A stretch of DNA of 63,341 bases from a bacterium (GTDB lineage: Bacteria > Patescibacteriota > Gracilibacteria > Peribacterales > Peribacteraceae). How positions within the stretch are numbered: the first letter of the stretch is position 1; the number at the start of each line of letters is the position of its first letter. Both the position numbers and the translations under genes were made by a program. This document shows, one piece after another, positions 22,323 through 27,438 of the stretch. The notes beneath the pieces are model-generated. The model searched no databases, had not been told where the DNA came from, and was given only the letters and a program-made list of their open reading frames with translations. The stretch lies in contig JAQCIJ010000003.1 of assembly GCA_027592135.1 (NCBI GenBank), positions 1 through 63,341 on the forward strand, in the 5' to 3' direction.

Positions 22323-23150
22323 CTAATTCTGCCCTGCCATCTTTGCCACTGCTATCCACTCATCAACAGAAAGTGTTTGTGGGCGGCGTGTTTCGTCTAT
22401 ACCTGCAGCAGAAAGGAGTTCCAAACCCTCGGGGAACGTCCCGAAACTATTGCGCAGCATCTTCCTCTTTTGGGAGAATCCAATCTTCGTCAGCTTAAGC
22501 ACCTTTTCTATGGTTGCTGCATCCGCAAGAGGCGAATCGTAGCAATCTATATGGATAACAGCAGAGTCGACTTTTGGTGGGGGAAGAAAAGCTTTGGGTG
22601 GTACGTTAATCACTTTAGTCGCTTTACCAAAGAGGGCTACAATTACGGTCAGCATGCTGGCATTTTTGGTATCACAGATTCTGTCTGCTACTTCTTTCTG
22701 AATCAGCAGCGTCATCGAAGTCGGGTAGGTTGCAGACTCCAAAAATACATGCTGTAAAAGAGGCGAAGTAATGTGATAGGGGATATTTGCTACGATTTTG
22801 TAGGGAGTTGTTGGCATTGGTGTTTTTAGTGCGTTGTCTTGGATTAACGTTAATTCGTTAACTCGTTGGTTCGTTGGTTCGTTGGTTCGCATGTATTCTC
22901 TTATTAGCGGGATCATACGATCATCGAGCTCTATAGCTGTAACGTGTCCTGCCCTCTTTAGTAGTTCTTTAGTAAGTACGCCGATACCTGGGCCTATTTC
23001 TACAATATGATCTGTCGATTCTATCTTCGCTGCATTGACGATCTCATCGAGAATCGGTTGATCGACCAAGAAATGTTGCCCCAAGTCGGTATTTAGGCGT
23101 AAAAGATAGGTAGAGCAGAACTGCCGAATTTGGGTTTTAAGGTCAGACAT
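22323..23150 (-). CDS. rsmA: 16S rRNA m6,2A1518/1519 dimethyltransferase
   Basis: LGQHFL, VEIGPG.G.LT, IELD, VANIPYHITSP, QKEVA.R, F.PPPKVDSA, FSQKRKML.N. Confidence 0.96.
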   Translation of the reverse strand: MSDLKTQIRQFCSTYLLRLNTDLGQHFLVDQPILDEIVNAAKIESTDHIVEIGPGIGVLTKELLKRAGHVTAIELDDRMIPLIREYMRTNEPTNQRVNELTLIQDNALKTPMPTTPYKIVANIPYHITSPLLQHVFLESATYPTSMTLLIQKEVADRICDTKNASMLTVIVALFGKATKVINVPPKAFLPPPKVDSAVIHIDCYDSPLADAATIEKVLKLTKIGFSQKRKMLRNSFGTFPEGLELLSAAGIDETRRPQTLSVDEWIAVAKMAGQN

Positions 23151-23158
23151 ATATTTAG

Positions 23159-23186
23159 TTGACATTACACAGTATAGCAGTAGAAT
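23159..23186 (+). promoter_or_regulatory. sigma70 promoter of the aro leader
   Basis: TTGACA-N16-TAGAAT. Confidence 0.65.
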
Positions 23187-23197
23187 CGTGAAGTCTT

Positions 23198-23263
23198 ATG
23201 ACTTCTAATATGTTTTTTAACGGCTATTGGAGCTTCGCATTCTGTGCGAGGACTGTGCTGTAA
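23198..23263 (+). CDS. aromatic amino acid leader peptide MTSNMFFNGYWSFAFCARTVL
   Basis: Six aromatic codons (F,F,Y,W,F,F) within ten codons; lies between the promoter and a terminator ahead of DAHP synthase. Confidence 0.8.
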   Translation: MTSNMFFNGYWSFAFCARTVL

Positions 23264-23293
23264 ACGTATCTGAAGTTAACCAATCGTTTAAGC

Positions 23294-23324
23294 TCTCTCC
23301 TCAAGCAGACGGAGAGATTTTTTT
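23294..23324 (+). terminator. attenuator terminator of the DAHP synthase leader
   Basis: TCTCTCC-TCAAGCAGAC-GGAGAGA-TTTTTTT. Confidence 0.8.
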
Positions 23325-23340
23325 CTATTTATTTCTATTT

Positions 23341-24357
23341 ATGATCATGAATGCAGATATTATCGGCTTATTACCTACTCCAGAGGGGTTGCAAGAGCTT
23401 TATCCAGTTACAAAAGAGCATAAGATAGACGAGCATCGTAGAGAAATCGAACGTGTGCTTTCTAGACAAGATTCTAGACGTCTTATTATTGCTGGCCCTT
23501 GCTCAGCGTACCCTTTTTCAACAGTTGATGAATATGCGGATCGCTTCGCTAGGCTGCGTGAAGAACTTTCTGAAAAGCTTCTTCTTGTTCAGCGGGTATA
23601 CATACAGAAGCCTCGTACCATATCAGGATGGACTGGCCCTTCTATATTTCCAGATCCTAAAAAATCTGCTGATATTGCTCAGGGTATTTTTTCTTGCAGA
23701 GAGATGATGTGTAGAGTTGCTCTTAGGAATCCTATTTACGATGAAATGCTTCATATAGAGAATCACGATAGTATCTCTCCTGTTTTAAGTGGTGCCGCAA
23801 TTGGTGCTCGTAGTACAGAGAATGCAGATCATCGTAGCGTAGCCTCTGGTATGGATATGCCCATTGGCATAAAAAATCCTACCAGTGGAGATATAACGAT
23901 TGGAGTCAATGGTGTTCGTGCAGCGCAGATGCCTAGAGACTTTCCGTACAAAGGTAAACATCTTCGCACGCATGGAAATCCGTACGCTCATCTTATTCTA
24001 CGTGGAGGTATAGATGGCCCTAACTACTCACCTTACCATATTGCTCAGGCAGATATGCAGCTAAGAGAACATGTGCAAAATCCTGCTATTATTGTTGATG
24101 CTAGTCATGACAATTCATTGAATGGACATGGAAAGGATCCTACATTGCAAGAGCATGTTCTTTTAGATGTGACAAATGGTATACAGCTTCAAAGAGAGGA
24201 ATATGAATTAGTTGCAGGGTTCATGCTGGAATCTAATATCAAAGGAGGAAAACAGGGTGTGTCTGATAATATGGACCCTCATGTCTCTATAACAGATGCC
24301 TGCTTATCCTTTGAAGATACAGAGCGAGTACTTCGTGAATTAGCTAATAAACTGTAA
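23341..24357 (+). CDS. aroF: 3-deoxy-7-phosphoheptulonate (DAHP) synthase, class I-alpha (AroF/G/H family)
   Basis: AGPCS, RVY..KPRT..GW.G, AIGARSTE, KNPT.G, H.ILRGG, VDASH.NS, G.MLES, SITDAC. True start is ATG 23341 or 23347, not 23227; the isozyme label is uncertain. Confidence 0.9.
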   Translation: MIMNADIIGLLPTPEGLQELYPVTKEHKIDEHRREIERVLSRQDSRRLIIAGPCSAYPFSTVDEYADRFARLREELSEKLLLVQRVYIQKPRTISGWTGPSIFPDPKKSADIAQGIFSCREMMCRVALRNPIYDEMLHIENHDSISPVLSGAAIGARSTENADHRSVASGMDMPIGIKNPTSGDITIGVNGVRAAQMPRDFPYKGKHLRTHGNPYAHLILRGGIDGPNYSPYHIAQADMQLREHVQNPAIIVDASHDNSLNGHGKDPTLQEHVLLDVTNGIQLQREEYELVAGFMLESNIKGGKQGVSDNMDPHVSITDACLSFEDTERVLRELANKL

Positions 24358-24363
24358 GAATTT

Positions 24364-24390
24364 CGTCGCTCGCGAAAGCGAGCGGCGTTT
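24364..24390 (+). terminator. terminator after DAHP synthase
   Basis: CGTCGCTCGC-GAAA-GCGAGCGGCG-TTT. Confidence 0.7.
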
Positions 24391-24423
24391 GACATTCCTA
24401 ATTTTTAAAGTATATTTTGGTTA

Positions 24424-24492
24424 ATGTTTACCCAGAACCTCCCACTGGCTCCAAGCCTTAGGCCGCCTATGGTGGGGGAGATTTCTGTGTGA
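24424..24492 (+). CDS. putative Pro-rich leader peptide MFTQNLPLAPSLRPPMVGEISV
   Basis: TTGACA-N16-TATATT-N7-ATG; followed by alternative antiterminator and terminator hairpins. Confidence 0.6.
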   Translation: MFTQNLPLAPSLRPPMVGEISV

Positions 24493-24514
24493 TCCTATAA
24501 ATAGATCAACAATT

Positions 24515-24544
24515 TCCCCCAAGCAAACGTACGGGGGATTTTTT
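24515..24544 (+). terminator. attenuator-type terminator
   Basis: TCCCCC-AAGCAAACGTAC-GGGGGA-TTTTTT; its 5' arm can instead pair with GGGGGAGATT (24474-24483). Confidence 0.7.
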
Positions 24545-24565
24545 GTATCTATTCATTTTTCTATC

Positions 24566-24829
24566 ATGGAACAGACTCAATCAGCATTAAATATCGATCA
24601 GCGTCCTTCAGTAGATCGTAGTGACCTAGAAACGCAAACAATTCTTTTTCGACAGCACGTTGAGGGGTTACTGAAGCAGAATTCAGATCGTCTACGGCAA
24701 ATATGTTCAGACAAAGGAGTCATCGGAGACTCTGCTACAGAACTTGTGGATGGCTTAGTGCAATTATTTGCTAATGAACCACATTATAAGCGTAGAAATA
24801 AGTTAACAAACCTGGTTTCTCAGCGGTAA
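24566..24829 (+). CDS. hypothetical protein
   Basis: 87-aa ORF directly after the attenuator. Confidence 0.6.
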   Translation: MEQTQSALNIDQRPSVDRSDLETQTILFRQHVEGLLKQNSDRLRQICSDKGVIGDSATELVDGLVQLFANEPHYKRRNKLTNLVSQR

Positions 24830-24853: not shown

Positions 24854-25771
24854 ATGCGCATTTTCCTTATCTTCTGCCTTCTCTGGAGTTCTGTGCCTCA
24901 GGCTCAGGCATATCCCGAGTATCCAGCGTTTGAGCAGACTCAGTTTGCAGAGGATTTTGGCATGTTCCGCTGGTGGGAGAGTTGCTGGTGGAGGGTATTT
25001 GATCCATACGTCTATGTCCTCTGTCAGCCCGATGGTGATATTTTGTTAGTCTATCCAGATGGATCGACACTCCCTGCATCGCAGGAGGATCTTGCAAGAC
25101 TGTTCTCTCTTGATGGAAGAAGAGGAGTTGGGGGTATAGGAGGAGTAGGAGTAGGAGCAGGAGGACTACGAGGGAGATCTGGAGCCAATAGACTAGGGCT
25201 TTTCCGCCCACCTACAGGACCACGAACTACCTCTCGTCCAACAGCAAGACGTCTTAGTCCTGCACCTGGTGATGGATTTCGTTTGAGTGATGTGTATGGT
25301 GGGAAGTTTACGCGGTTTGATGGATCTGGTTTTCCAGAGTTTCGTGTACCATCTGGTACTGGAATATTTAGCTTTGATGGATCAGGAAATCCTCTTGATA
25401 TTGATTTTGGTTCTCTGAATCAAGGAAACAGAAATACTGATTCTGGTAATAGAGGAAGTGGAAGTAGTAGCAGTACCGGTAATGGTTCTCGCTTTCGATT
25501 CGGGCAGGGGAGCAGTAGCTCTAGGGGGTTTTCTATAGGTGACCGTGATGCAGAAGGTCGTTCCAATATCGGATTGATAGAGTATTTACGGCAGAACGGT
25601 TCTGGTAATGCATTTGCAGACCCTAATGGCGGAACACGTATGCATGATATTTTCTATAAGCCCATTATAGGTAGATGTAGAAGTATCTACGATTTTATAG
25701 ATGGCGGCATATTTGGGCCCATTCCTTGCACGTCACATCCATGGGGAAATCACCAAAGCTTTGCACAATGA
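24854..25771 (+). CDS. secreted Gly/Ser/Arg-rich low-complexity protein
   Basis: Signal peptide ...PQAQA; G/S-rich middle; Cys pairs near both ends. Confidence 0.65.
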   Translation: MRIFLIFCLLWSSVPQAQAYPEYPAFEQTQFAEDFGMFRWWESCWWRVFDPYVYVLCQPDGDILLVYPDGSTLPASQEDLARLFSLDGRRGVGGIGGVGVGAGGLRGRSGANRLGLFRPPTGPRTTSRPTARRLSPAPGDGFRLSDVYGGKFTRFDGSGFPEFRVPSGTGIFSFDGSGNPLDIDFGSLNQGNRNTDSGNRGSGSSSSTGNGSRFRFGQGSSSSRGFSIGDRDAEGRSNIGLIEYLRQNGSGNAFADPNGGTRMHDIFYKPIIGRCRSIYDFIDGGIFGPIPCTSHPWGNHQSFAQ

Positions 25772-25785
25772 TGTATAATACTGAC

Positions 25786-27438
25786 ATGAAATATTCATGG
25801 ATTCTTACAGGCCTTTTTCTCCCGGTTTCTGTATTTGCTCTCACATTTGAGGCAAACACATTGCCGTACTCCGATTCTCCTTCCGATCTTCCAACACAGA
25901 TTGCCATTAGTACTTTAACAGAACTGGAGATAGTGACAGGAAATCCTGATGGTACATTTAGGCCAGGTGTTTCTATCAATAGAGCAGAGTTTATAAAGAT
26001 TGCGATGGGGTTACTTCCTCCAGAGACTGTGCGAGTGGCTACACGCTGTTTTCCAGATATCGATGAAAACATCTGGTTTGCGGCTCCTGTCTGCCGCGCA
26101 AAAGCATTGGGAATTGTCAGTGGTAATTCTGTAGCGGAAGTACCTGCAGAGCAATGGAAATTTGAACCAACACGATCGGTAAAATACGAAGAAGCTCTTA
26201 AAATTCTCTCACAGATTTATGGAACTCCACTACTGACAGTTAAAGGAGAATGGTACGAAAAGTACGTTCGTAGTGCAGAGAACCTTGGAATAGATCTTAA
26301 AGACTCAGCCCCTGGATCTGGTCTTACACGCGGACAAATGGCACGGCTTGTTGTAGGCTTCTTGGCGTATTCTCAAGGAGAACTTGATGATTTACGTTAT
26401 GCAGAAACACATCCGTTTATTCCTGTTCGCACAGTATTCGAACCAAAATCGTCTTCTTCTATATCCTCTGTATCCTCCATTTCTTCTGAGTCATCTGACA
26501 TATACGATGCATTGATTCATGATACTACAACAGATGATGCTGTCTTAGTTCTTGGAAAGACAACACACATTTTAGGGTCTGCAGAACTATTTGCTGATGC
26601 AGAGCCTATACAGGTGCAGTATTTCCTGATAGATCTCGTTGCTGCAAACAATTCTTTAGATGCCATGAATGTCTATGACGATCGCGGTAAACTTATTGGT
26701 CGTGCCACAGTTGATTCTTCTGTTGTAGGAAAGACTCGCTACAAATTGGGTGTAAAAAATAAGAATATCGTATTACCTCGAAGAGATGAGTACAGTTTTT
26801 ATGTTCGAGGCCTACTGCGTTCACAAGATAGTGGAGGTGTTAGCGGCGGTAGCATTCAGGTTTCGGAAATGGGCATAGACGGTATAGGAGTATGGAGTAA
26901 TAGAAATTACAGCGTAATGACAAGTGGTGAGACATTTGCAAAAACTTCAGTTGCACGCAGTGCTATTACTTCTATTGCCAATGCAGGAGATGACAGGTCT
27001 ATTCTTCTACAGGGGGAAGAGATTGAAATTGGCGCATTTCGGTTCGAAGGTGTTACAGGACACAGTGCAGCACGCTTACAGATTACTGCACTAGATTTTC
27101 AGATAGGTGCGGTGGGAGGTGTCACCATTAGTAATGCACTTATCCGTGTAGATGGAAGTTCTGAGAGGCACAACTGTAGCATTGCTAGTACGACACTGAC
27201 CTGTAGTAGCTTGCCAGATACCTATGGACGCCTTGATGATGGACCTCGCGTCTTAAGAGTGTATGCAGATGTTAGTGTTCCAAGTGAATCAGTGCATGCA
27301 GGTATGCAAATTTCAATAAATGACCCAGGATCTATAGGATCTGCAGGTTCCATAACATGGACAGACGGCGTTACCGTCTTTACATGGGTAGATTCCCTCA
27401 ATACGCCTGTGGCTCGTGGAACATACTATTCCTACTAA
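25786..27438 (+). CDS. S-layer homology (SLH) domain protein
   Basis: Signal peptide; G.PDGTFRPG.SINRAEF.KI, FPDI....WFA, P...V.YEEALK, LTRGQMA. Confidence 0.88.
   Translation: MKYSWILTGLFLPVSVFALTFEANTLPYSDSPSDLPTQIAISTLTELEIVTGNPDGTFRPGVSINRAEFIKIAMGLLPPETVRVATRCFPDIDENIWFAAPVCRAKALGIVSGNSVAEVPAEQWKFEPTRSVKYEEALKILSQIYGTPLLTVKGEWYEKYVRSAENLGIDLKDSAPGSGLTRGQMARLVVGFLAYSQGELDDLRYAETHPFIPVRTVFEPKSSSSISSVSSISSESSDIYDALIHDTTTDDAVLVLGKTTHILGSAELFADAEPIQVQYFLIDLVAANNSLDAMNVYDDRGKLIGRATVDSSVVGKTRYKLGVKNKNIVLPRRDEYSFYVRGLLRSQDSGGVSGGSIQVSEMGIDGIGVWSNRNYSVMTSGETFAKTSVARSAITSIANAGDDRSILLQGEEIEIGAFRFEGVTGHSAARLQITALDFQIGAVGGVTISNALIRVDGSSERHNCSIASTTLTCSSLPDTYGRLDDGPRVLRVYADVSVPSESVHAGMQISINDPGSIGSAGSITWTDGVTVFTWVDSLNTPVARGTYYSY

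Follow-up and report, generated by a model that had tools for sequence, protein, structure and literature searches.

The window examined here, that is the whole stretch of 63,341 nucleotides, is contig 52 of a host genome that measures 1.12 Mb in 54 contigs and is 98.3% complete; the class to which it belongs includes families that read TGA as sense. On its plus strand the window carries a sigma-70-like promoter, a short upstream open reading frame (uORF), an intrinsic terminator and a gene encoding DAHP synthase, all of which lie where an earlier note on this DNA had placed them. The promoter (23159-23186) consists of TTGACA at 23159-23164, a spacer of 16 nucleotides and TAGAAT at 23181-23186, and scores 11 out of 12. 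This match taken alone is not beyond chance, because the surrounding 3 kb contain five promoter-like sites where 6.3 are expected and are thus not enriched. The divergent gene upstream of the leader is ksgA/rsmA (22323-23165, minus strand), in which the 8-nucleotide unit CGTTGGTT occurs in three tandem copies in frame (window 22864-22889).

The -10 box ends 11 nucleotides before the AUG of the uORF. No Shine-Dalgarno motif precedes this AUG, and the transcript probably has a 5' UTR as short as about 5 nucleotides. The uORF (23198-23263, plus strand) comprises 21 codons and encodes the putative leader peptide MTSNMFFNGYWSFAFCARTVL, of which six residues are aromatic (four Phe, one Tyr and one Trp). 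The run of aromatic control codons extends from Phe6 to Phe15 (FFNGYWSFAF, 23213-23242), and the stall simulation described below places the sensitive codons at Asn8 to Trp11. Further downstream lies the intrinsic terminator (23294-23324), with arms TCTCTCC (23294-23300) and GGAGAGA (23311-23317) followed by seven T residues (23318-23324). In the transcript RNAfold adds two pairs, giving UCUCUCC(UC) and (GA.)GGAGAGA ahead of U7, with a folding energy of -10.8 kcal/mol. A pattern scan missed this terminator since its loop is longer than 8 nucleotides.

The DAHP synthase gene, of type I-alpha (aroFGH family), runs on the plus strand from an ATG at either 23341 or 23347 to 24357. Its product matches PF00793 with E=6.8e-45 and TIGR00034 (aroFGH) with 262.6 bits against a cut-off of 173.2, and its best match in the PDB is E. 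coli AroF (6agm, E=6.7e-61). The T-run ends 16 nucleotides before the start codon, and there is no space for a separate promoter. A second strong promoter-like site, TTGACA-16-TATATT (11/12), follows directly after the gene (window 24389-24829), and behind it lies an ORF of 87 amino acids (24566-24829) that matches no Pfam family and occupies the same position in a related genome (G001; L003 2688-2963). The region 24854-27438 encodes a Gly/Ser-rich, secreted-looking protein of 305 amino acids, again matching no Pfam family, and then an SLH-domain protein. The 305-residue protein is conserved after DAHP synthase in G001 and G005.

Predicted folding of the leader

The leader (23185-23345) folds more stably than expected from its composition, with a z-score of -3.42 and none of 200 shuffled sequences folding equally well. 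Folding places hairpin 1:2, AGCUUCGCAU with GUGCGAGG.CU, at 23231-23254 and the terminator 3:4 at the downstream end. Between them an antiterminator 2:3 can form (23241-23309), which is made of four segments pairing UCUGU (23241-45) with GCAGA (23305-09), GAGGA (23248-52) with UCCUC (23298-302), GCU (23257-59) with AGC (23291-93) and UAAACG (23261-66) with CGUUUA (23285-90). This structure is the minimum-energy state when a ribosome is positioned at Tyr10 or Trp11, and it also emerges from the RNAalifold consensus and from pair counts.

The effect of a ribosome was modelled as an unpaired footprint reaching from -15 to +12 nucleotides around the A-site codon, and the probability of the terminator stem was computed for each position. 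The terminator is predicted to form in the free RNA (probability 0.95) and with the ribosome at the stop codon (0.93), and it persists with the ribosome at Phe6 or Phe7 (0.87). The value falls to 0.46 at Asn8, 0.20 at Gly9 and 0.00 at Tyr10 and Trp11, and returns to 0.94-0.95 at Phe13 and Phe15. Only stalls at Tyr10 and Trp11 thus fully release the window terminator in the model, with Phe7 being borderline. Alternative footprints shift the sensitive positions by about one codon, and with a footprint extended to +15 the value at Phe7 becomes 0.46. In silico, stalling of the ribosome on the control codons releases the antiterminator, which excludes the terminator. When the sequence upstream of the terminator was dinucleotide-shuffled, 0 of 150 versions combined a terminator that forms in the free RNA and with the ribosome on the stop codon with its loss at some other codon. 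In the family, the dip over the aromatic run is seen in the model for 14 of 14 leaders. A strict definition of the switch is satisfied by 30 of the 51 leaders identified in the class (see below) compared to 10 of 153 shuffled sequences, leaving 21 of 51 that do not behave in this way. In one of the closest relatives (L003) the terminator does not form in the model at all, with a probability of 0.01 for the free RNA.

An alignment of 13 leaders of the family yields the region 2:3 helix as the sole RNAalifold consensus, with 89% of cells paired and three of seven pairs changed on both sides; the window has an A-U pair where the 12 others have G-C. The values for this helix are equalled by shuffles in 13, 2 and 4 of 500 trials. 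The covariation support is nevertheless modest, since a conserved purine/pyrimidine tract makes up the helix and slid registers still pair: slid by -1, 78% of the cells remain paired, and slid by -3 the covariation score is 0.211 compared to 0.201 in the true register. Covariation of the terminator was left uncounted on alignment A1, and terminators were judged one sequence at a time, because their 3' arms are out of register between the rows. Read by eye, hairpin 1:2 of the second close relative (L004) carries a compensatory change from CGC/GCG to CAC/GUG. In most members of the family region 1 is made up of Phe codons (UUC UUC UUU), region 2 is GGGGAAGG, region 3 is CCUUCCCC and region 4 is GGAAGG.

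The earlier note had proposed that the alternative structure is a pairing between GAGCTT (23230-35) and AAGCTC (23290-95), and that TAAACG (23261-66) and CGTTTA (23285-90) form another hairpin. All four motifs are found at these positions. The first pairing is absent from every minimum-energy state of the window and from the RNAalifold consensus. Judged by eye, it is disrupted in L003 (GGAGCTT opposite AAGTGCC), and in the proximal leader of L004 a compensatory change preserves it. The conserved antiterminator instead pairs GAGGA with UCCUC together with the flanking segments. TAAACG and CGTTTA are predicted to pair as the top of this antiterminator.

It is proposed that the locus is a ribosome-mediated, i.e. 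leader-peptide, transcription attenuator of the DAHP synthase gene, a reading already suggested in the earlier note, to which we assign a probability of roughly 0.8 and which, in this small-genome lineage, is supported by folding and comparative evidence together. Transcription is predicted to begin a few bases before the AUG of the uORF, and the mRNA from which the leader peptide would be made is therefore probably almost leaderless. With an ample supply of charged Phe, Tyr and Trp tRNAs the ribosome would run through the uORF, and region 2 would be occupied either by hairpin 1:2, which may form when no ribosome covers region 1 and would keep region 2 from region 3, or by the ribosome itself. 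The terminator (23294-23317 with U7) would then form and RNA polymerase would halt about 20 nucleotides before the start of the DAHP synthase gene. When aromatic aminoacyl-tRNA is short the ribosome would stall in FFNGYW and cover region 1, so that region 2 (UCUGUGCGAGGA...UAAACG) could pair with region 3, which comprises the 5' arm and the loop of the terminator, and transcription would continue into the gene. We infer from these sequence features that the uORF is translated and that the locus responds to amino-acid starvation.

Conservation of the leader among relatives

Nine of 61 close relatives and, at E<=1e-20, 108 of the 401 genomes examined in the class have the type I-alpha enzyme. 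A protein search with the window enzyme returned a single irrelevant match of 20 residues from genome contigs and none from metagenome contigs. The set of DAHP synthase genes compared here comprises 112 genes in 111 loci, excluding the fragment L009 and the gene of G324, which lies at a contig start. The upstream layout seen very often in the class is an open frame rich in Phe, Tyr and Trp, then a hairpin and, about 20-40 nucleotides before the start codon, a T-run. Of 110 DAHP synthase genes, 51 are preceded by a uORF with at least five aromatic residues in ten together with a terminator, compared to six of 110 reverse-complement controls, and with at least six in ten the numbers are 48 and two of 110, respectively. 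These counts leave out two genes with fewer than 300 nucleotides of upstream sequence, one of which (L029) does carry such a leader. Homologous upstream regions thus keep the uORF, the aromatic codons and the hairpins, in agreement with the conservation that the earlier note had put forward as a check. Within the clade formed by the window's family, 11 of 14 genes had a leader called by the script, two more have one with four aromatic residues and one (L071) received no call.

A scan of both strands of the whole 1.12 Mb genome found just two ATG-initiated uORFs with at least six aromatic residues in ten followed by a terminator, namely the window leader and a site at C15:3877-3951. In G266, a relative that has the full pathway, a leader of this kind precedes an operon comprising chorismate mutase, DAHP synthase, aroQ, aroA, aroE, aroC and pheA, which ties this leader family to aromatic synthesis. 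The other-type DAHP synthase loci of pathway-bearing family members show a candidate aromatic leader in one of six cases, with flanks of only 1.5 kb each. It is hardly credible, given these data, that the locus is merely a leaky terminator, or the terminator of a small gene whose product is a functional hydrophobic micropeptide, and involves no regulation. The peptide is indeed hydrophobic, but such an arrangement would leave DAHP synthase without a promoter of its own, and it leaves unexplained that an antiterminator overlapping the terminator is conserved, that the switch behaviour is missing in shuffles and that the leader associates specifically with DAHP synthase and aro operons.

Phe and Tyr occur in all 51 leaders and Trp in 31 of them, and putative sensing of all three aromatic amino acids by one leader is plausible. 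The peptides of the closest relatives are MTSYTFFYGYWSFAFSAGTVL (L003) and MINQTFFYGSWRFTYSVGSVL (L004), and within the aromatic run they differ from the window mostly by synonymous exchanges between TTT and TTC and between TAT and TAC. The leaders are also better conserved than the gene they precede, with nucleotide identities of 0.95 compared to 0.69 in an example pair and of 0.82 compared to 0.66 between the window and L003. Two loci of the same genus (L015 and L020) have leaders that are 95% identical in nucleotide sequence, with three differences in the uORF that all read as synonymous and hence an identical peptide, and DAHP synthase proteins that are 57% identical; this similarity reflects either very strong constraint or recent exchange. 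Some leaders have a more elaborate context. G005 carries two aromatic leaders in series (L004 910-1489), the first before an ORF of 98 amino acids and the second before DAHP synthase, and in G265 (L016 986-1489) and G343 (L020, oriented 988-1489) one leader is followed by an ORF of about 105 amino acids and then by the enzyme. Searches with the 98-residue ORF of L004 and the ORFs of about 105 residues of L016 and L020 gave no Pfam family and no usable Atlas match.

An RNA element that responds directly to a ligand or a protein, such as a riboswitch or a TRAP-like or T-box-like structure, with the uORF being incidental, would account for the strong folding (z=-3.42) and the high nucleotide conservation of the leader. 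Such an element is very improbable in view of how the leaders vary: between families their sequences have almost nothing in common apart from an open frame with runs of Phe, Tyr and Trp codons, and most changes inside the run are synonymous or exchange one aromatic residue for another. The modelled structural switch moreover depends on the position of a ribosome, and no Rfam family is matched. A cmscan of 22900-23600 at E<=10 returned just two chance-level matches to unrelated families, and neither Phe_leader nor Trp_leader was among them.

The nascent peptide itself might alternatively be the sensor, arresting the ribosome in response to a free aromatic amino acid in the manner of TnaC and not to the charging of tRNA. 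The recurrence of one peptide pattern in the family (aromatic, x, Gly, x, aromatic, Trp/Phe), with a Gly codon that is invariant in 13 of 13 leaders, lends this idea some appeal. The invariant GGC, however, sits in the stem of hairpin 1:2, and outside the family the peptides range from 12 to about 30 residues and are alike only in aromatic content, with no conservation of the stop-codon context. TnaC logic would also switch expression on in response to abundant amino acid, the opposite of what a biosynthetic enzyme requires, and we regard an arrest peptide as highly unlikely here.

As in the window, the sensor peptide of these relatives is probably made from a nearly leaderless mRNA, because promoter spacing is short and Shine-Dalgarno sequences are rare: a good promoter ends 8-13 nucleotides (mode 11) before the uORF AUG in 21 of 50 class leaders, and a Shine-Dalgarno-like tetramer occurs in two of 50. 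For the window uORF, too, it is the promoter spacing that points to probable translation from such a transcript.

The DAHP synthase and its pathway

In the 98.3% complete genome that carries the window, the searches recovered no shikimate-pathway gene other than DAHP synthase. Profile searches of this genome with PF01264, PF01761, PF01202, PF01220, PF01487 and PF01959 gave no match, and accordingly neither chorismate synthase, DHQ synthase, shikimate kinase, dehydroquinase I or II nor DHQ synthase II was found; the same holds for prephenate dehydratase, and PF08501 (the N-domain of shikimate dehydrogenase) had no match above cut-off. The sole match in the genome to PF00275, the EPSP-synthase family, is MurA, and a tblastn search with the proteins of a relative's aro operon recovered DAHP synthase and MurA alone. 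An archaeal-type entry route was considered and discarded, with DHQ synthase II (PF01959) absent from G000, G343 and three pathway-bearing relatives. The premise of the earlier note that DAHP synthase feeds all three aromatic pathways does not hold in the host genome, where the enzyme feeds no aromatic pathway because no later shikimate enzyme was found. That the gene under control would have no downstream pathway in this genome is odd for a biosynthetic attenuator. The same genome contains, at G000:C49:3376-3570 (L120 1489-1719, minus strand), an ORF of 76 amino acids that is weakly chorismate-mutase-like, below the cut-off, and adjoins a gene for a PilT-like ATPase.

This genome is not alone in this respect. 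Of the 401 genomes examined in the class, 165 possess chorismate synthase, and in the window's family 14 genomes have the type I-alpha enzyme and 14 have chorismate synthase with no overlap between the two groups. The former comprise 11 sampled genomes together with G000, G005 and G024, all lacking chorismate synthase, and have only this enzyme, with an aromatic leader and mostly beside ksgA; the latter have a different PF00793 DAHP synthase about 5 kb from chorismate synthase. The 14 orphan loci of the family share no conserved neighbour except ksgA upstream and lineage-specific genes. Across the class, 28 of the 39 enzymes from genomes that lack chorismate synthase have the leader upstream, compared to 23 of the 71 from genomes that possess it. 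In G328, which also lacks chorismate synthase, a cluster at C2:7699-12000 comprises DAHP synthase, a weak PDT-like gene, PDT and DHQ synthase (aroB), and looks like an intermediate stage of operon loss. In G024 a PDT-ACT gene and in G125 an aminotransferase gene directly follow DAHP synthase.

These observations raise the question of whether attenuator and enzyme are a decaying, functionless relic of a lost pathway. The missing pathway, the intermediate states in relatives (G328, G024) and the long branches of the family's type I-alpha enzymes, which form one clade with a support of 99, would all fit with such decay. It is nonetheless improbable, considering the constraint that acts on the gene: dN/dS is 0.10 for the orphan pair L003/L004 and thus as low as in pairs with the full pathway (0.105 and 0.075), and the leaders are even better conserved. 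The orphan state is moreover found in at least eight genera of the family and several other families, single-contig genomes included. The Cys, Lys, Arg, His, Glu and Asp residues of the GPCS, KPRT, IGAR, SHxNS, ESN and TDAC motifs, which we take to be catalytic on the basis of E. coli structures, are invariant in 112 of 112 class enzymes, among them 39 of 39 from genomes without chorismate synthase. Judging from these sequence comparisons the orphan enzyme looks catalytically intact, and dN/dS indicates that it is under purifying selection and not decaying. At the positions aligned with P148, Q152 and S181 of AroF, which are presumably feedback-site positions, the window enzyme has I, D and D, respectively. 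No feedback-site signal specific to orphans was found, as these positions vary equally in genomes with and without chorismate synthase.

One speculative reading, which is unlikely as it stands, is that the attenuator keeps the orphan DAHP synthase under aromatic-starvation control and that the enzyme serves aromatic supply via another cell. If this were true, a starved bacterium would make DAHP or its dephosphorylated form and a host or neighbour would complete the pathway; a committed precursor that is normally gated by feedback would be handed over, with the dependent partner holding the throttle. A less radical variant is that the orphan genomes encode unrecognised enzymes that consume DAHP. 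In either case the orphan context poses a testable question, namely what purpose DAHP serves in an auxotroph and whether the pathway is shared with a host. The proposed attenuator also implies that tiny genomes described as 'regulation-poor' retain intricate cis-regulation, in which the sensor peptide is probably made by leaderless translation.

Comparison with known attenuators

The proposed device shares its architecture with the E. coli pheL-pheA and trpL-trp attenuators, which likewise have four regions with 1:2, 2:3 and 3:4 pairings, place their control codons in region 1 and use an intrinsic terminator. Each of the E. coli leaders, however, holds codons for one amino acid and controls genes of a terminal branch and not the first common step. 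The pheL and trpL uORFs are led by a Shine-Dalgarno sequence, unlike the window uORF, and the window leader differs further in having no Rfam match.

A literature search found no paper on leader-peptide attenuation in Patescibacteria or on shikimate in Peregrinibacteria, and on comparative leader-peptide or terminator control of DAHP synthase it found nothing beyond Corynebacterium glutamicum. A metabolic map of Gracilibacteria includes shikimate intermediates, as a figure legend shows (PMC9166423). In mycobacteria, leaderless short ORFs encoding polycysteine are reported to be Cys-responsive attenuators (bioRxiv 10.1101/834739). They resemble the proposed device in that expression of downstream genes is attenuated through a short, leaderless ORF that senses an amino acid, and they differ in the amino acid and in the phylum; leaderless initiation in the window is moreover deduced from promoter spacing.

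The closest known case is the aroR leader of C. glutamicum, which contains Phe-Tyr-Phe and precedes aroF, a DAHP synthase gene (PMC11802643; PMC4046766; original description by Neshat et al. 2014). There, limitation of Phe but not of Tyr is reported to have raised transcription (PMC11802643). Both systems place a short mixed-aromatic leader peptide ahead of DAHP synthase, with ribosome stalling raising transcription, as is predicted for the window. The window belongs to another phylum, its leader has six aromatic codons including Trp, its uORF is probably nearly leaderless and its enzyme is without a downstream pathway. A mixed-aromatic leader before DAHP synthase therefore already has a precedent. 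Since attenuation is textbook knowledge and an aromatic leader before DAHP synthase is known in Corynebacterium, the device adds a lineage and not a principle. What is new compared to these systems is the combination of a putative amino-acid-sensing switch with an apparently intact first enzyme that is under purifying selection in many genomes without the remaining pathway.
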